Virus record (IMG/VR): IMGVR_UViG_3300032277_000041
Coordinates: 1-33,957 of that record
Length of the DNA stretch: 33,957 nucleotides
Source of the DNA: a virus
Taxonomy: Duplodnaviria > Caudoviricetes
Direction: 5' to 3' (one strand)
Position numbers and translations under genes: made by a program. Below the pieces are notes generated by a model. The model was not told where the DNA came from and made no database searches. It worked only from the letters and a program-made list of their open reading frames with translations. This document shows, in pieces, positions 3,783 to 32,825 of this stretch (the stretch's first letter is position 1; every line of letters begins with the position of its first letter).

Positions 3783-3819
3783 TCGTCCTCCGTGTGTGCT
3801 GTCCCCAGCAGGGCTGACC

Positions 3820-3900
3820 CTATCCGCCCATGGCGAAGAAGATCAGCGAGAAAATGATGATGAGGCTAGCTGCTGCCTCGATGTGCTCTTCGGTGCTCAT
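3820..3900 (-). CDS. 26-aa hydrophobic peptide (MSTEEHIEAAASLIIIFSLIFFAMGG)
   Basis: ATGA overlap with the upstream gene's stop; single hydrophobic stretch; too short for the ORF track. Confidence 0.5.
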   Translation of the reverse strand: MSTEEHIEAAASLIIIFSLIFFAMGG

Positions 3901-4115
3901 TGTGCCCAACCTTTTGCAAAACGCGCGCCCGCTGCGCGGCACCAGGTCGCAATTTCAGAAACGTGATCGACGTTTGGTTGTTCAACAGACAATTCGCAGC
4001 GACGTGCACGCCAGTAATACTCGGCAGCTTCGTCTTCGATGACAGTGATCGGACTGTCCTGCTTTACGCCACGAAGTGAAAGGTATTGAAGAAGACCTGC
4101 GCGAGATGTTGTCAT
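3897..4115 (-). CDS. Hypothetical protein (72 aa) with its own promoter and leader
   Basis: Start MTTSRAG at 4115, after RBS ACCACGGAG, a GGGA hairpin and a TATAGT -10. Confidence 0.7.
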   Translation of the reverse strand: MTTSRAGLLQYLSLRGVKQDSPITVIEDEAAEYYWRARRCELSVEQPNVDHVSEIATWCRAAGARFAKGWAQ

Positions 4116-4215
4116 TTTGTGCTCCGTGGTTGTTAGCGCCGCCGTCCCCGGCGACACTCTTCTACTATAGGAGTCCTGAAGATCGGCAAGGAGAAATATC
4201 AGATTATTTGAAACT
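4116..4215 (-). promoter_or_regulatory. Early-type promoter with GGGA leader hairpin
   Basis: -10 TATAGT (4164-4169); hairpin AGTGTCGCCG-GGGA-CGGCGGCGCT (4135-4158); AT-rich upstream region with an ATCAGA box; no good -35 at 17-nt spacing. Confidence 0.6.
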
Positions 4216-4702
4216 ATTTCGACTGAGACTCCAACCACGCCAGCACCAGACCCAGCGCCTGCCACGCGTGCGAGGCGACGCCGTACAGTGGACCAGGTGC
4301 AGCCTTCTTTCCGACCGCAGGCCGTGCTGGCTGGTCGTGATCTGCGATGCAGGCTGCACGCACGCGCGAGTCTGCCGATCCCGTTCCTGACAGCACACCC
4401 AGCGACCGCAGCACCTGTCGACGCGTCATCGTGGAGACCTGGCAGTCGAGCGCACGCGCGGTGGATTCCATGCCGCCTGCAGCCCAGGCCGTATCCAGCA
4501 GATGACCGATCACCCCAGTGCCGAGCGGACCCATGCAGGTCGGTCGCTCGATGATGACTGGCCCTGCGTGGTCTGCCATGACGCCGACGATGGTAGCTAG
4601 CGTCGCTGCCTTGTCTGCCCGCGTGACGCAGCGCGCCTCGGTGTCGTACAGCACGAACCCAGAACACGATGGCCCTGGGTCGATGCCCAGCACGATCACC
4701 AC
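4214..4702 (-). CDS. RuvC-like Holliday junction resolvase
   Basis: N-terminal VLGIDPG, central IIE and C-terminal HAWQALG pattern of RuvC/RNase H fold. Confidence 0.8.
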   Translation of the reverse strand: MVIVLGIDPGPSCSGFVLYDTEARCVTRADKAATLATIVGVMADHAGPVIIERPTCMGPLGTGVIGHLLDTAWAAGGMESTARALDCQVSTMTRRQVLRSLGVLSGTGSADSRVRAACIADHDQPARPAVGKKAAPGPLYGVASHAWQALGLVLAWLESQSK

Positions 4703-4974
4703 TCACCTCCGTCGAGCGGTTTGAGCCCTTCGCGGATCTGATCGAGCGTGCGCAGTTGAGCTTCGGTCTGCTTCAGACGCAGCGCGCGCACCTGCTCCAA
4801 CCAGTACCGGCAGTGCCTCTCAGACGAGTCGAGCATGGCGATCGTCGAGGAGCACATCGCGTACAGCGCCAGCGCAGCATCAGCACGGTCGGGATCGAGA
4901 GGCGGATCGCCTGCCATCAGTGTCTGGAAAAGCGCCTTCGCGCGCGCGGCTTCCGCCTCTGACTCTTCCGTCAT
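4696..4974 (-). CDS. Hypothetical protein (92 aa)
   Basis: Start MTEESE overlaps the HTH gene stop (ATGA); helical character. Confidence 0.65.
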   Translation of the reverse strand: MTEESEAEAARAKALFQTLMAGDPPLDPDRADAALALYAMCSSTIAMLDSSERHCRYWLEQVRALRLKQTEAQLRTLDQIREGLKPLDGGEW

Positions 4975-5231
4975 TGCGGCTCTCCCATCACGATCCAGAC
5001 TGCGACCTGCCATGCAGTCAGTTCGGAGCGCTCCGCGACAAGGAGTGAGATCTTGCGAGCCACTGCCACCGGGCATCGCGTCGCGCCTTTCTCGATGTAG
5101 CAGATGGTGCCCTGGGACAGTCCCAGTCGCTGCGCTAGCTCAGCCTGCCGCATGGGAGGATTGCACGCCAGGCGCAGAGCCTTGATTGCCTGGCCGTGGA
5201 TGGCGTGCTGGGTTTGCTGTTCTGTTGTCAT
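4971..5231 (-). CDS. XRE/Cro-type helix-turn-helix regulator
   Basis: IKALRL...MRQAELAQRLGLSQGTICYIEKG; RBS ACACGGAGG. Confidence 0.85.
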   Translation of the reverse strand: MTTEQQTQHAIHGQAIKALRLACNPPMRQAELAQRLGLSQGTICYIEKGATRCPVAVARKISLLVAERSELTAWQVAVWIVMGEPQ

Positions 5232-5262
5232 CTGAACCTCCGTGTTCATTGAGTCCGCCGCT

Positions 5263-5371
5263 CCACTACTTCAGGAACTGCGAACGCGCAACCATAAAAC
5301 GTGCATCATTTCTATTGCGCCAGCAGTGTCTGCTGACTACGTGGACCGAGCCACGCGATGGACGCGATGGC
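5263..5371. promoter_or_regulatory. Back-to-back sigma70-like promoters
   Basis: Leftward TTGCGC (5291-5286)-17-TAGTGG. Rightward TTGCGC (5315-5320)-17-TACGTG, with inverted repeat CAGCAG-tgt-CTGCTG in the spacer. ATGGA-loop hairpin at 5350-5371. Confidence 0.6.
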
Positions 5372-5383
5372 ATCGGAGATAGA

Positions 5384-6418
5384 ATGACAATCAAGACGCC
5401 ATCATGGCTGCCTGCGCCGGTACTCGACCGGTTGACGATCTACGACACGCGAGAGGCCTGGTTGGACGCCAGGAACAAACGCATTGCAGATGGAGTCATC
5501 GGCTCGACGACTGCTGCAGCGCTGATCGCGCTGTCACCATGGCGGAACCCGTGGGATTGCTGGGCTGCCGTCCACGCACCGCACCTCATCGAGCAGACGA
5601 CCAGCGACCCGCGACTGCTAGCTAGAGGTCTCGCGCTGGAAGGATTGGCCGACCGCCTGTATCGAGAGGAGACCGGATCGGAGACGTGGGGAGTCGACGC
5701 GCACATGGCAGTGATGTCTGCCGACCTGCTGTTCTGCGTCTCGCCTGATGCCTTCTGCCGCCATCCCAGCGCAGGCGTCGGTGTCGCTGAGTACAAAATC
5801 GTGCAGCCCTGGAGGCGCGACAAGTATCCGAGCGAGTACATCGAGATCCGGTCGCTGGCTGACCTCGACGCTGCCTCGACCCTCGGTCGCTGGCCGGTAG
5901 ATCGCCAGTATGTGATTCAGTGCCTCGTGCATCTGATGGCGACCGGTGCAGACTATGTCGACCTCTTCGCTGTCTTCGCGAAGGACGTGCAGCTTGGACA
6001 CAACGTCGACGGCTGGGACTCGCCCATCGCGGTCGAAGGTACTGCGCGCATGCGGATCTGGCGCGACGCTGACATGCTCATCGACGTAGCTACACCAATC
6101 ATTGACGCGCACTTTGACATCATCAAGAACGGAAAAGAGCCAGTGACCTTTGCGCCTCCGCCACCGTGGGACACTACACGCGACCCGCTCGACGGAAAGA
6201 GAGACGCGACCGCAGACGAGGTATCGATCTTGGGTGACCTCGCAGAAAAGTCGAACCGCGCCAAGGTCGACAAGGCTGACATCTCGATGCTGCGCGCTCG
6301 GCTGCGGGACTGCATCGCGGACAGTGGCAACAAAGGCATCAGCGCTGAATCTGACAGCGGAACCAAGGTGACCGCCTCGGTCAGCAAGTCCGGTCGACTG
6401 ACCGTCAGGGGTCTGTGA
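5384..6418 (+). CDS. YqaJ/lambda-Exo-like exonuclease
   Basis: WLDARNKRI...IGSTTAAAL...SPWRNPW...RGLALE...SPDA...AEYK...YVIQ (PD-(D/E)xK); adjacent to RecT. Confidence 0.85.
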   Translation: MTIKTPSWLPAPVLDRLTIYDTREAWLDARNKRIADGVIGSTTAAALIALSPWRNPWDCWAAVHAPHLIEQTTSDPRLLARGLALEGLADRLYREETGSETWGVDAHMAVMSADLLFCVSPDAFCRHPSAGVGVAEYKIVQPWRRDKYPSEYIEIRSLADLDAASTLGRWPVDRQYVIQCLVHLMATGADYVDLFAVFAKDVQLGHNVDGWDSPIAVEGTARMRIWRDADMLIDVATPIIDAHFDIIKNGKEPVTFAPPPPWDTTRDPLDGKRDATADEVSILGDLAEKSNRAKVDKADISMLRARLRDCIADSGNKGISAESDSGTKVTASVSKSGRLTVRGL

Positions 6419-7242
6419 TGTCAAGTGTCCAAACGACGTCAGTCACGCTTCGCGCCCGCGTGCAGCGCATGGCCTCGACGATGCTGCTCGACATGGTTGG
6501 CGAGGACCGAGCGAAGGAAGCAAGCGCGCGCGTCGCGATGGCCTTCGCTGCTGCACATCGCGCAGCTAGAAACCCTGCTGACATTGAGCGCTGCTCACCG
6601 GAGTCGATCGCGTCTGCGGTTGCGCTGTCTGCGCTGACTGGCCTGATGCCTGGAGGTGCTATGCCAGGCGTCTGGCTGGTGCCTCGCAGTGGTCAGCTTC
6701 AGTGGATGATTTCGCACCGTGGACTGACCACACTGTGCAGGCGCGCTGGCTACCAACTGTCGACCTGCGTGGTCGGCACCGCAGACCACATCGCAGTCGA
6801 GTTTGGAGAAGTGACCGAGCACCGTGTCGCCGTTGGAAATGAGGCCACCGGACTGGATGACCTCGCAGGTGTCATCGTCTCCTGCAAGCGCCTGACAGAT
6901 GGCGCGGTCCTCGGTCGCTACTGGTTGTCAGGTGCTGACGTTCGCAAGCGAGCGCGCGCCAGAGGTGCTGGTCCGGTCTGGAAAACTTGGCCCCTGGAGA
7001 TGGCGCAGAAGACTGCGATCAAGTGGGCCTGCGCGAGAGGCCTGGTCCCGATTGAGTCCATCGAGCTAGACCAAGCGCTCGCAGCAGACACACGTGCAGA
7101 GATCGATGAGCGTCCACGGGTGCAACTGTCACGGCCTGCGCTGCCTGCTCCGTCTGACATCTTCGGATCGGAAGAGCCAGACGACGACCCTGCGCCGGAA
7201 CCGGTGGACGCAGAAGTGCTCGACGACCCGATGGCGATTTGA
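6418..7242 (+). CDS. recT: RecT-family ssDNA annealing protein
   Basis: CSPESI, WLVP, QWMISHRGL and W...EMAQKTAIK motifs; acidic C-terminal tail; coupled to the exonuclease. Confidence 0.85.
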   Translation: MSSVQTTSVTLRARVQRMASTMLLDMVGEDRAKEASARVAMAFAAAHRAARNPADIERCSPESIASAVALSALTGLMPGGAMPGVWLVPRSGQLQWMISHRGLTTLCRRAGYQLSTCVVGTADHIAVEFGEVTEHRVAVGNEATGLDDLAGVIVSCKRLTDGAVLGRYWLSGADVRKRARARGAGPVWKTWPLEMAQKTAIKWACARGLVPIESIELDQALAADTRAEIDERPRVQLSRPALPAPSDIFGSEEPDDDPAPEPVDAEVLDDPMAI

Positions 7243-7502
7243 TGTTGCCTGGTATTCCTGCAGGTGCCATGGCCGTTCTTGACTATGTCGCCAGTACCCA
7301 GGTCTGCTATCCGTGGGTGCGTCTTGCAGAGATAGCGCCTGCAGTGCACCTGTCGCAGAAAACGGTGTATCGAGGTCGACGCGCATTGTTGCAATACGGT
7401 CTGATCATCGAAGGTGGCACAGACTCTCGACCTGAGATCCGTGCGACGATGACAGGCCGGAAAGTGATTGACGCGTTCATGCGTTCGGAGGTGACCAGAT
7501 GA
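7242..7502 (+). CDS. Small winged-helix/HTH DNA-binding protein
   Basis: LAEIAPAVHLSQKTVYRGRRALLQYGLI pattern; stop/start overlap with recT. Confidence 0.65.
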   Translation: MLPGIPAGAMAVLDYVASTQVCYPWVRLAEIAPAVHLSQKTVYRGRRALLQYGLIIEGGTDSRPEIRATMTGRKVIDAFMRSEVTR

Positions 7503-7720
7503 GAATCACGCCATGGTATCTGGTCGGACGTAGCTACCAGTGCTCGATGCGCGCTCCGTACTGCGATCTAGAAGTGTTGCCGGTCGATCTCGGCTGGCAG
7601 TGGAGGGTCTGCAAGATCGATCCAGTCACGGGTCGATTTGCAGTCGTGCATCAGGGCACAGAGGATCGACTACCTGCTGCGAAGGCGGCAGCAGTGGACG
7701 CAGCGAACCGGTCGCGGTAG
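7499..7720 (+). CDS. Hypothetical protein (73 aa)
   Basis: ATGA overlap and GGAGG RBS; WQWRV...AKAAA pattern common in small phage proteins. Confidence 0.65.
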   Translation: MRITPWYLVGRSYQCSMRAPYCDLEVLPVDLGWQWRVCKIDPVTGRFAVVHQGTEDRLPAAKAAAVDAANRSR

Positions 7721-7791
7721 TTTGCGACCAGGCGCGCTCCTCGGTCTCTCTCCGTGTGCTGGGTTGAGCGTGGCGGCCTATCCATCCGCTG

Positions 7792-7830
7792 CCCCATCGA
7801 CATGTCCCCCCGGTCGATGGGGTTTCCTGC
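7792..7830 (+). terminator. Hairpin, possible intrinsic terminator of the recombination operon
   Basis: CCCCATCGAC (7792-7801) pairs with GTCGATGGGG (7813-7822), followed by TTT and a T-rich tract. Confidence 0.5.
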
Positions 7831-7864
7831 GTCTGGGTGTTTTGCGTTTTCTGATCTTTTGTGG

Positions 7865-7938
7865 TTGCGCTATCAGAATCCGTGAAGTATGGTGTCGGGG
7901 CGGGGCGGGGACGCTCCGCACAAACCACGGAGAACGAA
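7865..7938 (+). promoter_or_regulatory. Sigma70-like promoter, GGGA leader hairpin and RBS
   Basis: TTGCGC-17-TATGGT; hairpin GCGGGGCG-GGGA-CGCTCCGC (7900-7919); CCACGGAGAA. Confidence 0.7.
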
Positions 7939-8286
7939 ATGACTCAGATTAACTGGAAGAAGCAGTATGCAGGCGATGGCAGCAGGATTCTCGTAGGCCC
8001 AGTGAATGACCGAGGGCTCTACCTACGCCTACAATCAGACCGATACAACGGAGGTTGGCAGCTACGCCTGATCGATCACGGTGTGAACGCAAGCTGTAGC
8101 ACGCTCGCCACAGCACGCTCGCCTCAGGGAGTCAGCACTTGGCAGCAGGCCAAAGTTTGGGCGCAGGGCCAACCTGAGTTGAACCCTACAGTGGCCAACC
8201 CGTGGAAGCTCAAAGCAAGAGACCTGCATCGAGATTGCACGCGCGAGGAGCTACACCGACTTCTGCAGATTGCAGAATATAGCTAG
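7939..8286 (+). CDS. Hypothetical early protein (115 aa)
   Basis: Start MTQINW after the conserved leader and RBS. Confidence 0.75.
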   Translation: MTQINWKKQYAGDGSRILVGPVNDRGLYLRLQSDRYNGGWQLRLIDHGVNASCSTLATARSPQGVSTWQQAKVWAQGQPELNPTVANPWKLKARDLHRDCTREELHRLLQIAEYS

Positions 8287-8329
8287 ACTCGCTGACCGAG
8301 CGAGGTGCCGGCGATGGCGGTGCGATTAT

Positions 8330-8429
8330 TTTCAGATTTTCTGAAGAAAACGCTACCGCTGAGAGAAATGATCGGCTATAGTAAAGGGGCGGGCCGGGGA
8401 CGGCACCGCGCCAAACACGGAGAAACAAA
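8330..8429 (+). promoter_or_regulatory. Promoter, GGGA leader hairpin and RBS
   Basis: Palindrome TTCAGA-ttt-TCTGAA; -10 TATAGT (8377-8382); hairpin at 8389-8409; ACACGGAGAAAC. Confidence 0.65.
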
Positions 8430-8876
8430 ATGACCGCAGCAATCAACACTCTTCGCGAAGCCCTCACCACCCTCGAAGACAACACCCCTGACTTCCTCGC
8501 TCCTGAGCGCGCCGCGCACGACGCAGCAGTAGACGCCGCACGCCGCGAACTGCACGCCGCCTTCGGTCGCCAGGCACACGCCGCGCACGTAGCTAAGACC
8601 TACAGCGCAGCGCTCGGCAGCAAGATGGAAGCGCGGGTGCACGCCTTCGGAACCCAGGTGCGGATCGCAGGCCGCTGGCACATGGTCGGAACCAACGTCA
8701 ACTTCACTGACTGCTACAACGCACGCTGCAGCCTCACCGGCAAGAGCACCTGGGCTCGCATGGTCGACGGTCGCTGGCTCGTCACTGTCTACCGGGCAGA
8801 CGGCAGCAACATGCAGACCATGCGCTGCAGCCACATCCAGAGCGCAATGAAGCAGATGAGCAGCTTTCTCCGCTGA
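8430..8876 (+). CDS. Hypothetical early protein (148 aa)
   Basis: Strong RBS and phage-like codon usage. Confidence 0.8.
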   Translation: MTAAINTLREALTTLEDNTPDFLAPERAAHDAAVDAARRELHAAFGRQAHAAHVAKTYSAALGSKMEARVHAFGTQVRIAGRWHMVGTNVNFTDCYNARCSLTGKSTWARMVDGRWLVTVYRADGSNMQTMRCSHIQSAMKQMSSFLR

Positions 8877-8882
8877 TCGGAG

Positions 8883-8972
8883 AATATCAGAAAACCTGTA
8901 GACAACGCGCGCTGCAGGTAGTACAACAAAGGTGCGGGCGGGGACGCCGCGCACACACCACGGAGAAACGAC
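8883..8972 (+). promoter_or_regulatory. Sigma70-like promoter, GGGA leader hairpin and RBS
   Basis: AATATCAGAAAACCT box; TAGACA-17-TACAAC; hairpin GTGCGGGCG-GGGA-CGCCgCGCAC (8932-8954); CCACGGAGAAACG. Confidence 0.7.
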
Positions 8973-9257
8973 ATGACTAAATCTGCATTCCGAAATTACT
9001 ACTTGGTCCAACTGCACACCAACCGTATGCGCGTGCAGGATCGGATCGCACAGATCAAGCGCAGCATTTGCGTTGAAGAGGACAAGCACGGGATCGACCT
9101 GTACGGAAGCGCGAAAGGCCTCGACGAGTTGTGGTGGCGCGGAGAATCTGATGCCGCAGAGAAAGTTGCAGCCATGAACAGAGAACTCGTTGGCTTGAAA
9201 GTGCAGCACGACGAATGCTGCGCCGAAATCAACCGCGCTCGTCTGGCGATGAAATGA
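8973..9257 (+). CDS. Hypothetical early protein (94 aa)
   Basis: Conserved leader and RBS; coiled-coil-like sequence. Confidence 0.75.
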   Translation: MTKSAFRNYYLVQLHTNRMRVQDRIAQIKRSICVEEDKHGIDLYGSAKGLDELWWRGESDAAEKVAAMNRELVGLKVQHDECCAEINRARLAMK

Positions 9258-9439
9258 CCGCAGACCTCTACACGAAAGAGAGCCACCGTTTAGTCACTGT
9301 GCACGCCTGCGAGGCAGATGCCCGCGCCTGCGCGAAGGCCTGCACGCTCGACGGTTGCCCAACCAAGGCGTACCGGCGCACCGTCAAGATCTACGCAGGG
9401 ATGACGGTTGTGATCTGGATGACTGCGCCTGCGCGCTGA
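9254..9439 (+). CDS. Hypothetical protein (61 aa)
   Basis: ATGA overlap with the upstream gene; starts MTADLYTK. Confidence 0.6.
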   Translation: MTADLYTKESHRLVTVHACEADARACAKACTLDGCPTKAYRRTVKIYAGMTVVIWMTAPAR

Positions 9440-9560
9440 CCCGAATCAGATTATGCTGATCAGGCGATATGCTCCTGGGATGGAGTTGCTGCCGTCGCGC
9501 TTAGGCTTGCAGAGGCCCTCCGGCGCGGCGGCAGCATTTATCGCAACCAGGCAGGGATGC

Positions 9561-9599
9561 CTGATTTACCACACGGAGAAACGATGACTACACAACAAC
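9561..9599 (+). repeat. Direct repeat copy 1 (RBS plus MTTQQ codons)
   Basis: 32-bp exact match between 9568-9599 and 10634-10665; 37/39 identical when extended. Confidence 0.9.
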
Positions 9600-10630
9600 A
9601 TCGCTTTGTTTTAGGTGAGCGCGTGTCCGAGCCTGCAGTCTTGCCAGAGTCGGTGCATCTGGTCGTGACTAGCCCGCCGTACCCCATGGTGGAGATGTGG
9701 GACGCTTCGTTCTCGGCCCAGCAGCCAGCCGTAGGCAAAGCGCTATCCGCCGTAGATGGTTCCGGCGCCTTTGAAGCCATGCACTCGATTCTTGATGCCG
9801 TCTGGGCTGACTGCCATCGTGCGGTGGTTCCTGGCGGCTTGGTGTGTGTGAACGTGGGTGACGCTACCCGCAAGCTAGGGAACGACTTTCAACTGTTTTC
9901 CAATCACGCCCGCACGATTCAAGGGCTGCTGTCGGCCGGCTTTCAGTTGCTCCCTGACATCGTCTGGCGCAAACCCACCAATGCGCCCAACAAGTTCATG
10001 GGGTCGGGTATGCTCCCAGGTGGTGCCTACGTCACCTATGAGCATGAGTACATCATCATCGCGCGCAAGGGTGGGCGTCGCGTGTTTCGGACGGCGGCCG
10101 ACAAGGCTCGTCGGCGTCGCAGCGCATATTTCTGGGAGGAACGGAACCTGTGGTTTTCGGACGTGTGGCAGGGACTGACTGGTGTGAGACAGGCAATGAA
10201 GGGAACCAAGCGGTCGCGCAGTGGTGCGTTTCCCTTCGCGCTTCCCGCGCGTCTGATCGACATGTACTCACTGCAGGATGATTTGGTGATGGACCCGTTT
10301 GCGGGCACAGGCACGACCGCCCTGGCGGCGGCTGCCGCGGGTCGCCACAGTGTCTCGGTGGAAGCGGACGTCTCAATGCAGCCGGTTTTTGAACGCACGC
10401 TCAGCCGTGTGTGCGCGGTTTCATCAGGGCGGACGCGTCAGCGCCTCGATGCGCATCGCGCTTTTGTTGCTGCGCGGGTGGACTCAGGAAAGGCTGTTAA
10501 GCACGTCAGCCAGACCTATGGTTTTTCTGTGATGAGCAGACAGGAAGTTGAGATAGCTCTACCGGTTGCCACTAAAATATCTCGGTTGGATCAAAACAGA
10601 TGGAAGGTCGACGCGAAAATCGGTATCTGA
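9584..10630 (+). CDS. Beta-class amino-DNA methyltransferase, Zim/M.MthZI-like (probably m4C, CTAG)
   Basis: VVTSPPYPMVEMWD, NVGDATR, LPDIVWRKP, KFMGSGMLP, AYVTYEHEYI, AYFWEERNLWFSDVW and DPFAGTGTT. These blocks match my recollection of CTAG-specific m4C MTases of the haloarchaeal Zim family. Confidence 0.85.
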   Translation: MTTQQHRFVLGERVSEPAVLPESVHLVVTSPPYPMVEMWDASFSAQQPAVGKALSAVDGSGAFEAMHSILDAVWADCHRAVVPGGLVCVNVGDATRKLGNDFQLFSNHARTIQGLLSAGFQLLPDIVWRKPTNAPNKFMGSGMLPGGAYVTYEHEYIIIARKGGRRVFRTAADKARRRRSAYFWEERNLWFSDVWQGLTGVRQAMKGTKRSRSGAFPFALPARLIDMYSLQDDLVMDPFAGTGTTALAAAAAGRHSVSVEADVSMQPVFERTLSRVCAVSSGRTRQRLDAHRAFVAARVDSGKAVKHVSQTYGFSVMSRQEVEIALPVATKISRLDQNRWKVDAKIGI

Positions 10631-10665
10631 TCAACCACACGGAGAAACGATGACTACACAACAAC
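10627..10665 (+). repeat. Direct repeat copy 2 (RBS plus MTTQQ codons)
   Basis: Matches 9561-9599. Confidence 0.9.
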
Positions 10666-10847
10666 GCACGCACCTCGTCGTCTGGCTGCTGGTCCTCTGG
10701 GACTTCTGCGACGACCTCCTGACTGATGCGCTGCTCTGCGGAGATGGTGCGCGCGAGACTATGGCGGCCCTCGATGACATCGAGACGGAGCTAGAGCGCC
10801 TGGGTATCGACGTGCGAGACGTACCCGGTGCGGTCCGCGCGCTATGA
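10650..10847 (+). CDS. Hypothetical protein (65 aa)
   Basis: Start MTTQQRTHL after CCACACGGAGAAACG. Confidence 0.7.
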   Translation: MTTQQRTHLVVWLLVLWDFCDDLLTDALLCGDGARETMAALDDIETELERLGIDVRDVPGAVRAL

Positions 10848-10938
10848 TCACGCCGATGGGTGCTGCAACACATCACATATGAAAATCGACACGGTTGGAA
10901 CCCGCAGCGCCCATCGGCACATCTCTCGGAGGCCTACC

Positions 10939-11316
10939 ATGTCTGCCACGCTCACTGCCATCGCTGTCATCTCCGCACTCCTCGTCGGCATCGGCGCAGG
11001 GTGGGGACTGAAGCCAGTGCCGGACACTGCTGACGCACTCGCAGAGCAGGCTCGCGCCATCGAGGCCATCCAGACAGGTCAGACGGAGCTAGCTAGCAGC
11101 CTGACTCGACCGATCGTCATCGACGCGGAAATCAGATCGCAGTTGGCAGAGGTGCCGGTGCAATGCCTGAAGGGCGCAGGCGGAGACCCGCTCGGAGTGC
11201 AGTGCCAGTGGAGCACGTGCATTCAGCACGGTTCCTCCAGTGCGCAGAGGCCAGAGTGCCGCGCCATCTCAGACCTGCTGGTAGAGCAGATGCGAGGAGC
11301 AGCCTGCGCTGATTGA
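10939..11316 (+). CDS. Membrane-anchored or secreted Cys-rich protein
   Basis: GGAGG RBS; N-terminal hydrophobic helix, short coiled coil, 5 Cys in the C-terminal half. Confidence 0.7.
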   Translation: MSATLTAIAVISALLVGIGAGWGLKPVPDTADALAEQARAIEAIQTGQTELASSLTRPIVIDAEIRSQLAEVPVQCLKGAGGDPLGVQCQWSTCIQHGSSSAQRPECRAISDLLVEQMRGAACAD

Positions 11317-11317
11317 C

Positions 11318-11893
11318 CTATGGCCAGGCGTCGAGGATCGCTCGCGCATGAGTGTCGATGGCGTCAGCAGTCAGCAGGTCGCGATGGTCTGGCTGGTCGA
11401 TGAAGCCAAGCTCTAGCAGCACCGCAGCGACGCCTGCAGGCGTGACCGCGTAGGACGGCTCGATGAGATTTGCTGCGTTGTTCCACGTGGAACGTGTGGC
11501 AGCGATGCAGCGCGCCCGCCAGCGACCGTCGAACAAGTCTGCGACCGTGGAGCACCAGGCGCCAGCGAGACCAGCGCCAGTCGTCGATCGGGGGTCGTAC
11601 ATTCCGAGGATGTAGCTACCGCCACCTGCGTTGACGTGGAGATGGCAAACGACGCCAGGCCCTGCGCCAATGGCTGCATGGGCAGACTCGCGACGCGAGG
11701 TGTAGGTCCATGGTCCATCGCGGTCCGAGTCGTGGATCGAGACGCGCGACCCGCCCAACGCGCGTGCACGATCTGCTACCGCTCGGACGATGTCTGCCTC
11801 TTGTCCCATGTCTGACGTCGCGCCTGGATCCCACCGGTACTGACCACTCTTGCTGCGGTGTCCGTGACCTTGGATGATCGCGATGTGCATCAT
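11318..11893 (-). CDS. Endolysin, N-acetylmuramoyl-L-alanine amidase (Amidase_3)
   Basis: Zn-amidase motifs IIQGHG, E, HLHVNA and LLELGFID. Confidence 0.88.
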   Translation of the reverse strand: MMHIAIIQGHGHRSKSGQYRWDPGATSDMGQEADIVRAVADRARALGGSRVSIHDSDRDGPWTYTSRRESAHAAIGAGPGVVCHLHVNAGGGSYILGMYDPRSTTGAGLAGAWCSTVADLFDGRWRARCIAATRSTWNNAANLIEPSYAVTPAGVAAVLLELGFIDQPDHRDLLTADAIDTHARAILDAWP

Positions 11894-13676: not shown

Positions 13677-13706
13677 GGGGCCTCCTCTGCTGTTTTTTGG
13701 AGGGTA

Positions 13707-18327: not shown

Positions 18328-18331
18328 TTTG

Positions 18332-19936: not shown

Positions 19937-19938
19937 GG

Positions 19939-20706: not shown

Positions 20707-20707
20707 G

Positions 20708-21852: not shown

Positions 21853-22454
21853 CAGGGAACCGCGAGTCGATAGTCCGTCAGCATCTCGCGGACTTCAGGC
21901 AGCAGCGACAGCGGAGAAACAGACCGAGAGCCTGCGCGGGTCTGCGTGCTGGTCGACCCTGCTGCAGACGTGTTGCCGATGACGTGAATGCACTGCACGA
22001 TGGCTGCATCAGTCAGCGTCGGATGGTTTGCGATCGTGTGCCCTGCAGACACGATCACTTTGTTTGCGCGGTGAGCTAGCGACCAGGAGTGCGTCGCGTC
22101 CACCAGTAGCTCGATGCGCCGTTCGTTCTTGACGTACTCGCTCGCAGCGAGCAGCGTATCATCGCCATAGTCCTGTTCAGGATCGACGTGCACCGATGTG
22201 ATGGAGAGGATCGGAGGAGTCGGGAGCACTGCGACGTTGGCATCATCTTCGAGGCCTAGATCGTAGCGACCAGGGAACACGGTGTAGGTAGCCGCCTCCA
22301 TGGTCTGCGCGCCCGAGTCCGGTTGTGGATGGAGGCAGTACCGGGCGAAGGCTGCATCGATCCGAGCTAGGAGCGTCGTGATGGTCGAGTCGTCTGCGGA
22401 CGAGAGCGACGGTGCAAGTGCTCGCACCTGCGCTGCGGTAGCTAGCGCCATCAT
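21852..22454 (-). CDS. Head-tail adaptor/connector
   Basis: LATAAQVR...PILSITSV...LLPEVREMLTDYR, typical of gp6/gp15-like adaptors. Confidence 0.75.
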   Translation of the reverse strand: MMALATAAQVRALAPSLSSADDSTITTLLARIDAAFARYCLHPQPDSGAQTMEAATYTVFPGRYDLGLEDDANVAVLPTPPILSITSVHVDPEQDYGDDTLLAASEYVKNERRIELLVDATHSWSLAHRANKVIVSAGHTIANHPTLTDAAIVQCIHVIGNTSAAGSTSTQTRAGSRSVSPLSLLPEVREMLTDYRLAVP

Positions 22455-22669
22455 TCACCCCTGAGCAAATCGCGAGACCGTTGGTCGATGGCGTCAAGCA
22501 CCTCTGAGCGTCGCAGGGTCTGCGATTCGCAAACCCGCAACGCAGAGAGGTTCCGATCGAGCGAACCAGAATCGATCCGCTTGATCAGTGACTGCGCCCC
22601 CCTGGCCATCTCGCGAAGCGAGACAGCAGGGGTCGAGACAGTGCCTCGAATGGCGCGATCGAAGACCAT
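22451..22669 (-). CDS. Small hypothetical protein (72 aa)
   Basis: Stop/start overlaps on both sides; E...RRSEVLDAIDQR motif seen in small post-capsid phage proteins. Confidence 0.6.
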   Translation of the reverse strand: MVFDRAIRGTVSTPAVSLREMARGAQSLIKRIDSGSLDRNLSALRVCESQTLRRSEVLDAIDQRSRDLLRGE

Positions 22670-23070
22670 CAGTCAGCGCGCACCCGTTGCAGGGTGACAG
22701 CGCAGAGGCCCTTGACTGCGATGCCAGATCCAGCCTTCGTGAGAGCCACCTTGACCAGCCCGCCCTCTGCCACAAGGTTAGACCCTGCTCCAGAAAGTGC
22801 GATTGGCTCGTTGGTGCCTGCGACGACATCGCCTGTACCGCTGGTCGATGTCACGATCGTCCCGAGAGAGACGCCCCCGACGGTGACCGTGAACGTCACG
22901 TTGTTGCTGTCGTTTGCGGTGATGGCGGCTTCAGGGATGAAGTCGACATTGGTGACCTGCGCCTTGCCGCCGAGACGGTTGATGGCGTACACGTCGCCAG
23001 CAGTGCCTGCGGTAGCAACCCCAGTAGGAAGCTGCATCACGGCGGTGCTAAACTCGTTTGATTGACTCAT
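22669..23070 (-). CDS. Putative capsid decoration protein
   Basis: 133 aa, Gly/Ala/Thr/Val-rich; immediately after the capsid gene. Confidence 0.6.
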   Translation of the reverse strand: MSQSNEFSTAVMQLPTGVATAGTAGDVYAINRLGGKAQVTNVDFIPEAAITANDSNNVTFTVTVGGVSLGTIVTSTSGTGDVVAGTNEPIALSGAGSNLVAEGGLVKVALTKAGSGIAVKGLCAVTLQRVRAD

Positions 23071-23078
23071 GGTAGACC

Positions 23079-24599
23079 TCAGACGCTCATGTTGTAGGCA
23101 TAGCGGACACCCTTGTCGCCAGCTTTGGTCAGATCCTTGAATCCAACCCGCTGACGGGCACGCATGTAGGTTCCAGCGACGGTGATGTCATTCTGGAGGG
23201 AGACGCTGGCACCGGCACGAAGGACGCGACGGAACATGCGGCGGTTCAGCACGACATACCCAGTCTTCGTCTTGGTCACGTTGTCGTAGACGCCAGATGC
23301 GTTCATGTCGGAGGTCATCGCGTCAGTCATGATGATCGGGTGACCTGCGATGCTGCCCACTTCACCGGCCGCGATTGGTGCCCGGTTGCCATAGTCGTTG
23401 GCGCTCACGATGCCAGACAAGCCAACAAAGTTCTTCAGGTAGCCTTCTGGACTCGTGATGATCGGCATGTCGCCAGGCACGCTGCGAGGTCCACCGACTG
23501 CGTTGATGTCAGCGAAGAGAGTCGCGAGGGAGTGCGTCGACCGGTTGACTCCATTGCTGTCATCGAGCGCGATGGAGCGCAGGCCCTGGAAGGTCCGACG
23601 GTAGTCGATGCTGCCAGCGTCCACTGCACCGAAGTAGCCACGGGTGTCCCAGCTAGCGATGGTGTCCTGGTGAGTCGCAGCGGTGTCGCCGTTCATCAGG
23701 CAGAGACGAAGGCCCATCGCGAGGCTGCGCGAGATGGCATCACGGATGAACGGGAAGGCAGCGACGATGGAGTCACTGGCTGCGTCCTCGTGGATCAGGA
23801 CCATCGTGTACATCGGGGATGCAGTGAGGGTCAGCTTGTTGGTTCCGACGCTGCCCTTGCTGAGTGCAGCAGGGTTGTCGCCAGTCGCTCCACCGCCCTT
23901 GTACGGCACGGGGTACGCGGTACCGACTGGAAGCTCGACGGATTCCGACTGAATGGTCAGGCTGTCGAAGAGACCGATGAAGCCATCGGGGTCGTACTCT
24001 TGGACCTGCCACAGTGGGCTGGCGAGCAACGGAGTCGGGATGAACTCGCCACCGCTGCCGTTCTGGTCGTCCCATGCCTTGCGGATCGGAGCAGGCATCT
24101 TGGACCAGGCGCGCTGCACGCGGTTCCACGCCTTGGTTTCTTTCCGCACAACTTCGGCGCGGTAGCCTTGGCCCCGATGATCGAAGGCGTCGCGACCGTG
24201 GCGTGCCACGCTGACGACGTAAAGCGATTCGCAGGCTTCGATGAGGTTGCGGTGCGCGTCGTTGAGCGGACGCGCAGCCAGCAGGCCATCGCTGTCGGAC
24301 CGGCAGAGAGAGGAATCGTCCGAGTCGTGACCGCGAAGGAATACGCGACCATCGGTGTCGACGAAGCGCTGCACGAGTTCGCGATCGGAACCGCCAACGG
24401 TGGCGAGCGGATCGTGGTTGCGCGCCTTGCTCTCTGCGAGTTCTTGACGCACGGTGCGCAGGTCGTCAGCCATCCGAGCGATCTGCTCAGTCTGCTCAGT
24501 GGACGATCGGGCTCCTGCATCTACCTTTTCGGCGAGTTGCTGGGCCTTTGTTGCAGTGGAGGCAGCGAAGGCCTGCCACTCGGCTTGGGTCTGGGGCAT
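23079..24599 (-). CDS. Major capsid protein (HK97 fold, N-terminal coiled-coil delta domain)
   Basis: Start MPQTQAEW after CCGGAG; GGEFIPTPL, LMNGD and GSIAGHPII motifs; follows the protease. Confidence 0.88.
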   Translation of the reverse strand: MPQTQAEWQAFAASTATKAQQLAEKVDAGARSSTEQTEQIARMADDLRTVRQELAESKARNHDPLATVGGSDRELVQRFVDTDGRVFLRGHDSDDSSLCRSDSDGLLAARPLNDAHRNLIEACESLYVVSVARHGRDAFDHRGQGYRAEVVRKETKAWNRVQRAWSKMPAPIRKAWDDQNGSGGEFIPTPLLASPLWQVQEYDPDGFIGLFDSLTIQSESVELPVGTAYPVPYKGGGATGDNPAALSKGSVGTNKLTLTASPMYTMVLIHEDAASDSIVAAFPFIRDAISRSLAMGLRLCLMNGDTAATHQDTIASWDTRGYFGAVDAGSIDYRRTFQGLRSIALDDSNGVNRSTHSLATLFADINAVGGPRSVPGDMPIITSPEGYLKNFVGLSGIVSANDYGNRAPIAAGEVGSIAGHPIIMTDAMTSDMNASGVYDNVTKTKTGYVVLNRRMFRRVLRAGASVSLQNDITVAGTYMRARQRVGFKDLTKAGDKGVRYAYNMSV

Positions 24600-24641
24600 T
24601 TTGTTTGCTCCGGTTGTGGTGAGGTGCCCAGCATGGGCGCA

Positions 24642-24666
24642 CCCATGTTCTATCACGGAACATGGG
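24642..24666. promoter_or_regulatory. Inverted repeat around a CGTGATA box upstream of the capsid gene
   Basis: CCCATGTTC-tatcacg-GAACATGGG. Confidence 0.5.
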
Positions 24667-24678
24667 AAAGGTGGAAAG

Positions 24679-25530
24679 TCAAGACCAGGGGAAAGTTGGT
24701 CCGTCGTTTGGCTGCGGTTTGTACGGCAGGCCGGTCGGCTTTTCTGCAGTCGATGCCTGCGCGACGTAGCTGCGCGCGAGTGCTGCGCGCGGGTTCATCG
24801 GCATCGGAGTCACCGAGGCTTCCAGCAGACGGGGCCGGACGTAGACTGCGCCCCTCGTGGAATACCTGGTGTCTTCTTCTGGCAGCGAGGCACGCGCGAT
24901 GACTGCTGCCGGTCGGAATCCGACCGAGACCGTGCGGAGTACGCCCTGCTCCAAAAGTGCTGCGACGGTCTGTGACAGTGGGTAGCTAGCCACGGGCGTC
25001 GGAATCAAGGTGCCGCGAAGCACGCCACCGGTTGCGCGCACGTTCGTCCACTTGCCGATCGGAGGCGCGGAGTAGTCGTGATTGTATGGCGCGACCGGGT
25101 TGCTCTTGAACTCGGACAGATCCCAGGTCTGCTCGACGATGTCGTCTGCCCGGTCTGGCGCTGCGTCGCTCATCACGAAGCGATAGGTCGGACGCTTTTC
25201 TTCGTCCTTGTCTCCTCGCTCCTCTTCCTCTTCGTCCATCGGCATCCCACCGAGGTCGTACCGTAGGACGGTTCTGTACGACAGGGAAAATGGCGACTCA
25301 CCGACCGAGCCTGCCAGGCGCTGCACCAGATCTGGATCGAGCAGTTGGTCAAGGTGCGGGACAGATCCACGCGCGACCGCGTACACGTCATCCGTCGTGC
25401 CACCGACAGACTCAGCCATGCGCGCGACCAGGTAGTCCTGCAGGCCCTCGCGGGTAGCCTCTCCGATCCAGCGGCGGATCGTATCAGCAGGCGTCGATGT
25501 GATGAAGATTGGTGCGGATGCGCTGCTCAT
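24679..25530 (-). CDS. HK97-type prohead protease
   Basis: DRADDIV, YNHD, PIG, SVGF and LLEASVTPMPMNPRA motifs. Confidence 0.9.
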   Translation of the reverse strand: MSSASAPIFITSTPADTIRRWIGEATREGLQDYLVARMAESVGGTTDDVYAVARGSVPHLDQLLDPDLVQRLAGSVGESPFSLSYRTVLRYDLGGMPMDEEEEERGDKDEEKRPTYRFVMSDAAPDRADDIVEQTWDLSEFKSNPVAPYNHDYSAPPIGKWTNVRATGGVLRGTLIPTPVASYPLSQTVAALLEQGVLRTVSVGFRPAAVIARASLPEEDTRYSTRGAVYVRPRLLEASVTPMPMNPRAALARSYVAQASTAEKPTGLPYKPQPNDGPTFPWS

Positions 25531-25532
25531 AG

Positions 25533-26774
25533 CTAGCCCCTGATGTTGACCGGGCGAACGACGCACCGGCAGTTGATGTCCTCGGCAGGGTCGAAGAATA
25601 GACCAGGCCCCTCGCCAGACGCACCCGAGATCGTATCGAACGGCTCGCCTGGTTGCACGCGTTCGCCGTCTAGCTCTTTGTGAGACTCGCGCACTGCGTC
25701 ATCCTGACTGGTGACCCACTCCTTTTCAAAGACGACGCCGATGTTCGCTGCCTGGTTGAATGCCATTTCCTGACCCTGCGACACGGTGCGCGCAGTTTCG
25801 GTGCGCGCGATGGTCAGTGCTCGCGCAGGCGAGAATGCATGGTCTCGAATCAGCGTGCGTTGTAGCTCACCGACTGCGACGCCGTCAGCTAGCCCAGCGC
25901 GCACGACCTTTGCGACTCGATCCTTTGTGACCTGCTGCACGTCCGCGATCATTTCCGCGATGATCTGGTAGGTTGGATCAAGGGTGGGGTCAAATTCAGA
26001 TTCCTCCATCAGCAGGCGCGCGACTACCGCGTAGGATCTGCGCACGCCTCGCTCGATCGTCTGCGCTGCAAACTGCTCTTGCACGATTGCGACCTCGACA
26101 TCATCCATCAAGATCGCGCGCAGTTCCTCGTCGCTGATGCTGCGAGAAATGGACCGAGTGCCACCTAGCACCCTTGCGATGCGGTCGTTGTACCGTGCGA
26201 CCTGCTGCGGAAAGATGCCGCTCTTGCCAGTGCGCCACTGCGCTCGGATCTGCCTCTCAGTCGGTCGCTGCACCGAGTCCAGCCAGCGCCGCCAGTAGAC
26301 GCCAGGCAGGGTGTCTGCACTGGTTCGGACCATTCGCTGCACCGGTCCGCAGTGATGGTGATGCCTGCGCTTGCGCTTGTCTGCTGCGTCCAGTTGGTTC
26401 CGCTTGCGTCGAGCCCATGCCCGTCCGCTGTCTCCGCCCCATAGATCCCAGGCGATGCGCAGCGGTCCGACTCGATCGCTGGCGGTGTCCCACTTTTCCG
26501 TGCCGCGCTGCTTCTGTGCCTCCGCGCTGAACCGCTCAAAGAATGCAAACATGTCGCGCACGTTGTCAGGGTGGATGTCCTGACCCGAGAGGATCCGATT
26601 GGCCATGTTCAGAGCCTTTCGGGTTCCTCCTCGACCGTGCTTTCTCCGCAGATCCTTTCCGCGCTTGGCTGCGCGCTGCATCTGCTTCGTAGCTACCAGA
26701 ACGATTGCGTCGTAGCGGCTCGGAGCAGAGCCCCCCTGGCGCGCGACCACCTGATACGGCATCGCCTCGGTCAC
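25533..26774 (-). CDS. Mu gpF/SPP1 gp7-like minor head protein with extra N-terminal domain
   Basis: C-terminal IARTET, KEW, D.AVRESH..LDG and EDINCRC; N-terminal IAWDLWGGDSG domain. Confidence 0.85.
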   Translation of the reverse strand: MTEAMPYQVVARQGGSAPSRYDAIVLVATKQMQRAAKRGKDLRRKHGRGGTRKALNMANRILSGQDIHPDNVRDMFAFFERFSAEAQKQRGTEKWDTASDRVGPLRIAWDLWGGDSGRAWARRKRNQLDAADKRKRRHHHHCGPVQRMVRTSADTLPGVYWRRWLDSVQRPTERQIRAQWRTGKSGIFPQQVARYNDRIARVLGGTRSISRSISDEELRAILMDDVEVAIVQEQFAAQTIERGVRRSYAVVARLLMEESEFDPTLDPTYQIIAEMIADVQQVTKDRVAKVVRAGLADGVAVGELQRTLIRDHAFSPARALTIARTETARTVSQGQEMAFNQAANIGVVFEKEWVTSQDDAVRESHKELDGERVQPGEPFDTISGASGEGPGLFFDPAEDINCRCVVRPVNIRG

Positions 26775-28186
26775 GCCTCATCCCGCAGAAGTGGTCCCAG
26801 GAAATCGAGCAGGGCTCCGACCTCAGTGCGCAAGTCGTCTTCATCGTCTGGGTCTGCGTCGGTCAGCATCTCGCGCAGCGCCTCGACCTGCGTGATGATG
26901 TCCTGCAGCGCTTCTGCGTCCGCTTCGGCTGCAGGGTCGGCTGCGACCTCGTCTGGTGCGCCTGGTGTGTTCGGGTCGATGCCAAATGAGGCGACCTCTG
27001 GTGCATCATCAAACCGCTCGAAGGCATAGGCCTCTGCTGGGCTCATGCCGTTCGCGATGTGGAGCGCGACGCGTTGCAGGCGCTCGGTCCTGCCGTCTTC
27101 CATCTCCGGCAACACATGACAGACGCGAATGCCCGTGAATCCTAGCCGGCGAACGAGGTCCGTCAGCACGTCATCGATCAGGCTAGCTAGCGGTGTCAGC
27201 GTGTCGACGATGTATGAGCGACGCTCCATCTCTGCCGTCGCGTAGTTCGCAGACTGCAGACCCAGCAGCGTCGGAGGCACACCGGTGACTGCGCTGATGA
27301 CCTTGACGGTGTACTCGCGCGAGGCCATGCCGCCTAGCTCATCGACTGTCCAGTCAAGAGCCTCGAAGGTGCCTGCGCCCGACATCACTGCGACGCCTCC
27401 GGTCTGCTCTCGGAGGATGCGATCGATCTGGGTCTGCATGTCGCGCACCTGCGGACGACCCCAAGTCGACTTCGGATCTCGCGGCACGTAGGCAGCATCT
27501 GGTCTGCCCCTGCCAGCCTTCTTTGCCATCTGCGCTGCCATAGCTACGTCGGCTGCGAGGTCTCGATCCATCGGCTCGACTTCGCCCGTGCCGTACAGGC
27601 GCTGGAGTCCACCACCGCCCGATGCGTAGCGCAGGTGAGCGATGCACTCAGGGTCGTAGGACACATCTGTGCCCTGCTGGTCGTAGACATATGCGAGCGC
27701 GCTGCCGTCGCGACCAGGTGTGATGTTGACCCGCGCTGGCTCCAGCAGCAGCATCCCAGTCGGCGCAGTGCCTGGTGCACCCTTGCCGACTGGCAACACG
27801 TATGCGTTCCCACCTGGCAGCAGGTCGGTCACAAGTTGCGTCCTGAACTGGCGCGCGGTCTGCATCGTGTTGGGTCGATCGAAAAGCTCGCAGAGCGGAT
27901 GGTCCTCGATCGTCTCGTAGCTATCGCCGTTGTACCGCTGCACCTTTAGCTGCAGTGCAGCCAGCGAGGATGCGCGGATGTCGACTGCTCGCCAGTACCA
28001 CGGGTTCGCCAGCAGTGCAGACGCGGCGCGGCGCGGGTCGTAGGCAGTCGGGACTGACTCAGCGCTCGCAAAGTCTGAGCCCGCGACGAAGGCCTGCTCA
28101 TCGCTCGGAGGCTCGACGGTCACAACAGACAACGCGCGCAGGATGCGGACCGGTAGCGACAGAGGTGTAGGTTGTGCAGTGCTCAT
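26771..28186 (-). CDS. Portal protein (HK97-type)
   Basis: HPL...PN, GNAY, LEPARV, IAHLR, GVPPTLLG and NYATAE motifs. Confidence 0.92.
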   Translation of the reverse strand: MSTAQPTPLSLPVRILRALSVVTVEPPSDEQAFVAGSDFASAESVPTAYDPRRAASALLANPWYWRAVDIRASSLAALQLKVQRYNGDSYETIEDHPLCELFDRPNTMQTARQFRTQLVTDLLPGGNAYVLPVGKGAPGTAPTGMLLLEPARVNITPGRDGSALAYVYDQQGTDVSYDPECIAHLRYASGGGGLQRLYGTGEVEPMDRDLAADVAMAAQMAKKAGRGRPDAAYVPRDPKSTWGRPQVRDMQTQIDRILREQTGGVAVMSGAGTFEALDWTVDELGGMASREYTVKVISAVTGVPPTLLGLQSANYATAEMERRSYIVDTLTPLASLIDDVLTDLVRRLGFTGIRVCHVLPEMEDGRTERLQRVALHIANGMSPAEAYAFERFDDAPEVASFGIDPNTPGAPDEVAADPAAEADAEALQDIITQVEALREMLTDADPDDEDDLRTEVGALLDFLGPLLRDEA

Positions 28187-28225
28187 GTCGCGAGCGTATC
28201 ACGGACCGGATCGAACGGCGCAAGA

Positions 28226-28254
28226 ATGCGAAAGCCCCGCGCGGGGGCGGGGCT
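28226..28254 (-). terminator. Intrinsic terminator of the moron
   Basis: On the minus strand AGCCCCGC-6-GCGGGGCT is followed by TTCGCATT. Confidence 0.6.
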
Positions 28255-28275
28255 CGGGTCGGCAGGTGGGCGCCG

Positions 28276-28512
28276 TTAGGCGTTCGTCGCTGCGTCATCG
28301 CTCATAACGTAGGTCAGCATCGCGCGCGCTGCGTAGACAAAGTTGGCCGGTGTCCGCTCATAGCCGCACACGTCGTTGAGGTAGCGCGCTGCGTCTGTGT
28401 CAAAACTTTCGACAGTTGCCCGGCTGCCGTAAATCGTACACATAGAGCGCTGACGTGTGATGAAGATACTGCGGAGGCGTCGGTATTCGGCTGCGGCTTC
28501 GGTGCGGGTCAT
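28276..28512 (-). CDS. Moron gene, hypothetical protein (78 aa)
   Basis: Start MTRTEAA; own promoter, leader hairpin, RBS and terminator; sits between terL and portal. Confidence 0.75.
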   Translation of the reverse strand: MTRTEAAAEYRRLRSIFITRQRSMCTIYGSRATVESFDTDAARYLNDVCGYERTPANFVYAARAMLTYVMSDDAATNA

Positions 28513-28610
28513 CTTGCTTCTCCGTGTGTTGTGGTGCAAGGCTCCCGCCTCGCCCTCTAAGTATGGCCCGCTATTGGTCTCCCGTCAATAGGTTTTCTGA
28601 TATTTCAGCA
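28513..28610 (-). promoter_or_regulatory. Sigma70-like promoter, GGGA leader hairpin and RBS
   Basis: AATATCAGAAAACCT; TTGACG (28588-28583)-17-CATACT; hairpin GCGAGGC-GGGA-GCCTTGC (28536-28553); ACACACGGAGAAG. Confidence 0.75.
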
Positions 28611-32432: not shown

Positions 32433-32490
32433 TGCTTGACTCCGTGTGTCGTTCAGATTGTAGCGTATCGCGCCCGATGGCGGCCCTGAC

Positions 32491-32821: not shown

Positions 32822-32825
32822 AGCG

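Follow-up and report, generated by a model that had tools for sequence, protein, structure and literature searches.

We describe here a reusable promoter-leader cassette in the genome of a tailed phage, IMG/VR virus record IMGVR_UViG_3300032277_000041 (33,957 nucleotides, the whole stretch of DNA that was analysed, hereafter the window). In this cassette, a predicted promoter is followed by a GC-rich hairpin with a GGGA loop and by a ribosome-binding site (RBS), and the gene behind it is exchanged between related strains. We lean towards the interpretation that it is an expression and recombination cassette resembling the promoter-early stem-loop (PeSL) cassettes of T4-like phages, in which the hairpin protects the 5' end of the message and GGGA is a GNRA cap that descent and recombination have made uniform. 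Four readings of the hairpin are weighed below, and the role of the cassette in gene exchange holds under all of them.

A promoter-leader cassette at which genes are exchanged

The preliminary description of this DNA had reported six leaders with a GGGA hairpin and one with an ATGGA loop, and all seven hairpins are present where it had placed them, on the same strands (Table 1). An eighth, CAGGCA-GGGA-TGCCTG at 9548-9563 (+) ahead of a methyltransferase gene, had been overlooked. A GGGA hairpin with a stem of at least four pairs lies within 45 nucleotides (nt) upstream of 7 of the 12 [AC]CACGGAG sites, compared with 0.6% of random positions (binomial p 2.6e-13), and ACACGGAG occurs nine times against 0.9 expected under a third-order Markov model. 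Folding z-scores are -2.5 to -3.8 in seven of the eight leaders and -1.2 in the helicase leader. The second GGA that had been noted in the RBS is there, but the RBS is not a single sequence: three leaders have CCACGGAG, and the ATGGA leader has ATCGGAG. Five of the window hairpins are copies of one repeated cassette of ~95 nt, matched by a covariance model (R1), and the hairpins at 3797 and 9548 are unmatched by R1 and lie outside it.

Six of the stems (7900, 8389, 8932, 28553, 4158 and 5350) begin 4-7 nt after the end of a -10-like hexamer, much as had been noted before, and a -35-like hexamer lies 17 nt further upstream for 7900, 8389 (weak), 8932, 28553 and 5350, with a spacing of 14 or 16 for 4158. 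A generic sigma-70 scanner called none of these promoters (one site against 1.7 expected in the region 3500-11400), and the predicted promoters therefore rest on an alignment of 37 cassettes. In this alignment, position 2 of the -10 is A in 37/37 and position 6 is T in 76%, and a G five nt past the -10 is invariant.

Relatives were gathered through their portal and RecT proteins, independently of the hairpin (portal identity 69-99%), and leaders were counted in the window and 56 partly overlapping relative loci. These contain 49 distinct GGGA leaders of two types. Type 1, of ~95 nt, consists of an AT-rich tract, which only some copies have as an inverted repeat, a -35 (TTGACG, TAGACA, TTGCAC and similar), 17 nt, the -10, a GC hairpin of 8-10 base pairs (bp) that begins 4-7 nt further on, an A/C spacer, CACGGAG and ATG, in this order. 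In type 2, a short hairpin directly precedes the RBS, and the gene is an internal or core one (helicase, primase, methyltransferase-like and second cassette genes). As read from the sequence, most cassettes carry one or two short genes and then terminator-like hairpins.

The genes behind the 39 long-spaced leaders belong to 28 unrelated protein families with a median of 97 amino acids (aa), and three families are found behind different hairpin types. Exchange is also seen directly between related strains, the joints at 3900-4112, 8936-9253 and 9567-10634 being covered by one contig each at a depth of 4-7. In one strain, the gene 4115-3897 is swapped for 235 other bases (breakpoints 3900-4112). 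In another joint, the gene 8973-9257 is skipped (8936-9253) and the cassette then drives the next gene, and other strains have different sequence after ATG 8973; loose ends cluster at 4122 and 8977. A strain without the methyltransferase gene 9584-10630 (9567-10634 skipped) has its joint inside the 32-nt repeat that flanks this gene, and the eighth leader (9548-9586) is likely the original leader of gene 10650. Relative locus L256 is 92% identical to the window to just past ATG 28512 (28507) and 95% identical from 28250, with a different gene between, and in yet another strain the entire cassette between terL and the portal gene is replaced by 106 other bases. Thus, the recurrent hairpin of the preliminary description is real, but what it overlooked is that most copies belong to one homologous, reused cassette where genes swap, so that shared descent explains part of their sameness.

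A proposed protective 5' hairpin and the constancy of its loop

Under the interpretation that we favour, the host sigma-70 polymerase would start at or beside the first base of the stem, judging from the position of the -10, and the paired 5' end would block entry of the RppH/RNase E type. In the available part of one report, 5' secondary structure is established for other mRNAs as a block to 5'-end-dependent decay that stabilises the message (PMC3997798). The A/C spacer, which is unable to pair with itself, would keep the RBS reachable. Recombination would replace, insert or delete the gene behind the cassette; this exchange, observed as swaps, would take place at the cassettes because the copies share 40-100 nt, and it is probably carried out by the phage's own RecE/RecT. 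GGGA would then be a stable GNRA cap spread through common descent and recombination among the copies. Other loops in like positions, namely GGAA, CAGAAA, GAAA, GAGA (L032) and TGC (capsid leader), count in favour of this interpretation.

The stems behave as expected of RNA. The earlier observation that their sequence varies while pairing is kept extends to the relatives, in which 16 distinct inner stems have standard pairs at four positions in 15/16, 16/16, 16/16 and 14/16 cases, counted over related sequences with no phylogenetic correction. These stems switch among G-C, C-G, A-U and G-U pairs. The pairs were counted by a loop-anchored script, and R1 holds 4 bp because MAFFT misregisters the stems. 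The G-U pairs and the exchange of pairs argue for RNA structure and against a DNA palindrome. They bear on the idea that the element is a boxB-type antitermination site, or a DNA-level operator beside the promoter, which we consider very improbable. Although the loop is of the GNRA type and the inverted repeat lies where operators often lie, the DNA palindrome is broken by the G-U pairs and by the turnover of the stems, and none of the 45 phage proteins scanned with PHROG and Pfam matched an N-like family (short arginine-rich motifs can escape such scans). Moreover, cassettes with one or two short genes before terminator-like hairpins leave little to antiterminate. The boxB idea of the preliminary description received no support.

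The loop is kept more strictly than stability would predict, and here the evidence weighs against the interpretation that we favour. The free drift among GNRA and UUCG loops that would have spoken against a specific loop is not seen in the promoter cassettes of relatives: a loop-blind search anchored on the AT-rich tract and the RBS recovered 31 leaders, with GGGA in 31/31. Two IMG/VR-wide scans, in which the stems were fixed and the loop was left free, yielded 142 matches, and GGGA was found in 15/15 of those with the full cassette context, all from contigs already known; six matches with two flags carry other loops, on contigs that are not necessarily kin. ViennaRNA gives equal energy to all seven GNRA loops tested, so that stability alone does not select GGGA, and GGGA is also found on unrelated short stems. 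In addition, GGA occurs outside the GNRA context: in the ATGGA loop ahead of RecE in the window and in L006, on different stems; in an AGGGAC loop in two cassettes; and in the distant phage G737, where a promoter is followed by a hairpin with a GGGGGAAG loop and a second leader has two GGGGAC-containing loops. An RBS that is always open is not borne out either: for five leaders, folded with coding sequence included, the predicted accessibility of the Shine-Dalgarno (SD) sequence lies anywhere between 0.01 and 1.0. The capsid leader, used as an internal control, folds weakly (z -0.2). Finally, the start of transcription at the stem and the protection of the message are themselves predictions, and the strictness of GGGA conservation is not fully accounted for by protection.

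Variation of the loop was seen in other places. In one short-spaced leader family outside the promoter cassette, the loop is GGGA, GGAA or CAGAAA, and the sister phage L032 appears to have GAAA and GAGA loops at comparable places. G737 is a complete phage of 74% GC, whose core proteins are mostly 31-41% identical to those of the window and whose GGA sits in loops of 8 to 11 nt; the retention of GGA outside GNRA in this phage is suggestive only, being a single case at 74% GC, and no relatives of G737 were found. In the same phage, L371:15400-16050 (-) holds a moron-like two-gene cassette with a promoter, GGA-loop hairpins and a terminator, inserted relative to its neighbours.

These observations raise the alternative that another sequence-specific partner reads GGGA, be it an RNA-binding protein of the phage or the host, a contact in ribosome standby or a second RNA. 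This alternative would explain a loop invariance that exceeds the prediction from stability, the recurrence of GGGA on unrelated stems and the poor fit of the CsrA consensus. We regard it as improbable: no candidate partner was found, RNA-binding families being matched by 0/45 phage proteins, the single conserved small protein that was tested (7499-7720) is similar to unnamed clusters only, and the loop varies in the short-spaced family. Cleavage at GGAG of the T4 RegB type was also considered and rejected, as no such family was matched among the 45 proteins.

The CsrA question and the candidate host

The preliminary description had proposed the dual-site design of CsrA/RsmA targets. In such an operator, a host CsrA/RsmA-type dimer would bind the GGA of the loop and that of the RBS and would repress or stabilise early messages according to host state, the cassette still serving as a swap joint. 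We think this unlikely. The two GGAs are 16-20 nt apart in 39 of the 49 leaders and at least 10 nt apart in 47, and in the parts of the source available, CsrA bridges sites 10-63 nt apart with an optimum above 18 (PMC7652899). The RBS ACACGGA carries ACA and GGA, both 100% conserved in ligands selected by SELEX, as given there (PMC7652899); [AC]CACGGAG contains ACGGAG, and an A stands two bases before GGAG in 92% of the 37 aligned cassettes. Moreover, A-GGGA is present in six leaders (four CAGGGAUG, two CAGGGACG), two phages share the ATGGA loop, the GGA of G737 lies in loops of 8 to 11 nt, and CsrA-like genes are found in 45/154 genomes of the candidate host order.

On the other hand, GGGA is preceded by G in 35 of the 49 leaders, by C in 8 and by A in 6, compared with a consensus stated as A(N)GGAX in the accessible text of PMC4005645. 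Thus the caveat about the canonical adenine in the preliminary description was well placed, 43/49 GGGA loops being without the ANGGA adenine; the ATGGA leader fits A(N)GGAX in the loop and the GGGA leaders mostly do not. Most SELEX stems, as far as that source is available, have at most 4 pairs (PMC7652899), whereas the stems here have 8-10 bp. CsrA is absent from 8,418 six-frame segments of the window and the 56 relative loci, in which positive controls matched, and from G737. Within the family to which the genome carrying the closest methyltransferase belongs, a tailored CsrA profile matched 1/22 genomes and Pfam weakly one more, these genomes being incomplete. In addition, GGA is inherent to any SD and a short leader forces the spacing of the two GGAs. 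The leader of the late capsid gene is built on this A/C-GGAG plan too, so that the RBS design is general in the phage. Its TGC loop is kept in relatives, which could equally be read as a late gene escaping a GGA-loop regulator. From the dual-site claim, the GGA-GGA spacing and the ACA-C-GGA RBS stand, but the missing adenine, the lack of CsrA in the clade and its patchy occurrence in the candidate hosts speak against it, and a regulon under protein control was not borne out.

From one horizontally moved gene, we infer a host in Myxococcota. The best named relative of the captured methyltransferase is a 'Deltaproteobacteria bacterium' protein (65%), and matches were found in 31/401 genomes in the phylum of the Deltaproteobacteria metagenome-assembled genome G001 and in 69/154 genomes of one order, the closest being G711 (66% protein and 72% DNA identity). 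RecT relatives, 28-41% identical, are present in 4/154 genomes of this candidate order. The portal had no match in 301 genomes of the class of G001, and no CRISPR-spacer-like or prophage match was evident among the matches listed (154 genomes, best 2 candidates each). CsrA-like genes are found in 116/301 genomes of the phylum. The form in the candidate order is divergent, with Q/H-K/R after the conserved T5 and no EEIY-type C-terminal segment. Absence of CsrA is soft here because in G711 and G721 ribosomal L2 is also without a match.

As side observations, in the divergent CsrA-like subfamily (L283:1420-1632 (-), L321-L332), T5 is not followed by the RR/RK pair, and the usual C-terminal segment is missing. 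Judging from the starts of open reading frames, its gene appears to adjoin genes that we take to be queA-like and uracil-DNA-glycosylase-like. An unusual anti-SD behind ACACGGAG was rejected for the candidate order, as the single 16S end examined is the standard CACCUCCUUU. At the starts of ribosomal operons in three genomes of this order, CACGGAG was found once among the matches listed. MCACGGAG-ATG is enriched over a reversed-pattern control in 5 genomes, a weak control on which we do not rely, and the cassette pattern gave 3 matches against 1 for the control in 5 candidate-host genomes. A search for CsrB-like repeats in 5 CsrA-positive genomes returned matches that resembled coding or tandem repeats and were uninformative.

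The phage and its relatives

The window is a complete virus record with a 36-nt terminal repeat, which gives a circle of 33,921 bp with 62% GC. PHROG and Pfam scans of the 45 proteins identify a tailed phage with genes for terminase, portal, capsid, tail tube, tape measure, amidase, primase/helicase, resolvase, a helix-turn-helix protein (4971-5231), RecE/YqaJ, RecT and two DNA methyltransferases; integrase and CsrA families had no match among these proteins, and the cassette genes of the window had no match in PHROG. The window DNA is present in three microbial-mat sequencing runs, one of them perhaps its source, and strains 85-99% alike are present in the marine sequencing runs examined.

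Several further features of the genome were noted. The DUF927 primase/helicase gene (697 aa) spans the circular junction (3-998 and 32826-33953, -). For the major capsid gene, ATG 24599 (MPQTQ...) is the most likely start, in place of GTG 24656. A TGATA/CGATA-like motif, possibly a sign of late promoters, lies ahead of the genes for the capsid, the portal and the ParB-methyltransferase. Upstream of the ParB-methyltransferase gene, 32480-32830 is non-coding; TGTCCCA/TGGGACA is repeated several times there, along with short tandem repeats such as GTACTAC/GAAGTAGTACC. Relatives have similar GTGGGACA repeats at the equivalent position, and the stretch is possibly a replication origin or packaging site. 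In L004, L005, L009 and L268, another gene (MEAIELFAGAGG...) replaces the ParB-N6/N4 methyltransferase behind a short GGGA hairpin; judging from a motif, it is probably cytosine-methyltransferase-like. CTAG occurs 92 times in the window, mostly as AGCTAG/CTAGCT, and 0-4 times in each of eight relative loci (12-21 kb), whereas CCGCGG occurs once in the window and 11-30 times in each of these loci; CTCGAG occurs once in the window. This skew suggests a recent shift of host or of restriction-modification, or selection for a 6-mer.

Table 1. Coordinates of the leaders and of the repeat-flanked methyltransferase gene in the window.
Feature	Position	Strand	-35	-10	Hairpin	RBS	Start codon	Gene or remark
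Promoter-leader cassette	7848..7941	+	TTGCGC 7865-7870	TATGGT 7888-7893	GGGA, 7900-7919	CCACGGAG 7925-7932	ATG 7939	115-aa orphan; promoter predicted from alignment
Promoter-leader cassette	8337..8432	+	weak, 8354-8359	TATAGT 8377-8382	GGGA, 8389-8409	ACACGGAG 8415-8422	ATG 8430	148-aa orphan; AT-rich inverted repeat
Promoter-leader cassette	8882..8975	+	TAGACA 8899-8904	TACAAC 8922-8927	GGGA, 8932-8954	CCACGGAG 8958-8965	ATG 8973	94-aa orphan
Promoter-leader cassette, terL-portal interval	28510..28605	-	TTGACG 28589-28584	CATACT 28566-28561	GGGA, 28553-28536	ACACGGAG 28527-28520	ATG 28512	78-aa orphan
Promoter-leader cassette	4113..4206	-		-10-like TATAGT 4169-4164	GGGA, 4158-4135	CCACGGAG 4129-4122	ATG 4115	72-aa orphan
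RecE/YqaJ leader	5315..5386	+	TTGCGC 5315-5320	TACGTG 5338-5343	ATGGA loop, 5350-5371	GGAG 5375-5378	ATG 5384	
Helicase leader, short-spaced	3780..3810	-			short GGGA, 3810-3797	ACACGGAG 3795-3788	ATG 3782	promoter uncertain; fold z -1.2
Eighth leader	9548..9586	+			CAGGCA-GGGA-TGCCTG, 9548-9563	ACACGGAG 9571-9578	ATG 9584	
Major capsid leader, internal comparison	24597..24643	-			TGC loop, then A/C spacer	CGGAG	ATG 24599	weak fold, z -0.2
N6/N4 DNA methyltransferase gene 9584-10630	9568..10665	+						flanked by 32-nt direct repeat of RBS and first codons (9568-9599, 10634-10665)

Novelty and significance

The leaders lie outside Rfam: a covariance-model search matched none of them and gave 3 weak, unrelated matches elsewhere (E up to 5). 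R1 run against distant RecT-carrying loci and host regions (63 sources) matched only L259 and L106 outside the window, and a loose pattern scan gave no new cassette among the matches listed (at least 119 loci). No description of this element was found in the literature searched, mostly open-access, on phage CsrA leaders, the GGGA tetraloop, promoter-hairpin or moron cassettes and Myxococcota CsrA. The main text of a bioRxiv survey of myxobacterial phages, in the part available, is without 'CsrA' or 'hairpin'; its supplements could list these phages.

Shuffling of PeSL-type cassettes is here extended beyond T4-like phages to a small tailed phage likely infecting Myxococcota, with swaps visible among closely related strains. 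As a marker, the cassette is of practical use for collecting the accessory genes of the clade, 28 families already, which likely include host-takeover or anti-defence proteins. A bolder proposal, possible although in our view doubtful, is that the cassette is a mobile phage operator that wires captured genes into an early regulon, its GGGA loop and RBS GGA being read by a divergent CsrA-like protein of altered specificity from predatory Myxococcota or by another RNA-binding protein. If true, this would couple the expression of phage accessory genes to host state and would provide a target RNA for an uncharacterised CsrA subfamily. The fixed loop offers a single-mutation handle (GGGA to GAAA) for distinguishing a passive stabiliser from an operator read by a protein.

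Comparison with known systems

To our knowledge, known 5' stem-loop stabilisers of mRNA are not tied to one loop sequence, in which the phage leader differs. It resembles the 5'-terminal stem-loops that act against RppH and RNase E, as described in the available part of PMC3997798, in that a stable hairpin sits at the predicted 5' end, preceded by few unpaired bases or none at all. With the CsrA/RsmA-RsmE leaders of hcnA, glgC and flhDC, it shares a looped GGA upstream of an ANGGAN overlapping the SD, at 16-20 nt, and for flhDC, binding of CsrA at the 5' end can stabilise the message (PMC4005645, PMC7652899, both from partial texts). It differs from them in its loop, mostly a GGGA tetraloop closed by G-C and lacking the 5' adenine, in its long stem, and in coming from a phage without CsrA. 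Lambdoid morons, in the accessible portion of PMC2839356, are likewise single accessory genes with their own promoter and terminator, but their mobility is independent of conserved flanks, whereas here the shared leader is the crossover site.

The closest likeness is to the PeSL cassettes of the T4-like phages RB49, phi1, PST and nt-1, insofar as the available sections of PMC2839356 and PMC4122927 describe them. Both are composites of ~100 nt made of an AT-rich tract, a sigma-70-like promoter, a stem-loop, an SD and a start codon, and both precede small orphan genes in variable regions. Both also serve as joints for insertion, deletion and replacement of genes, seen here between related strains. 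The sigma-70-like -35 and -10 with the AT-rich upstream tract are present in the 37 cassettes, and a weaker AT-rich inverted repeat upstream of the -35 is found in some copies only. However, the genome here is a 34-kb siphovirus-type one with RecE/RecT, not T4-like, and the loop is fixed as GGGA with no U-tract after the stem. PeSL stems, by the same partial sources, are terminators and mostly lie between the -35 and -10, over the -10 or upstream of it, whereas here the GC stem lies at the predicted +1, downstream of the -10, with A/C rather than U after it. The element thus behaves like a PeSL and yet departs from it in the defining feature, a terminator stem mostly in or upstream of the promoter.

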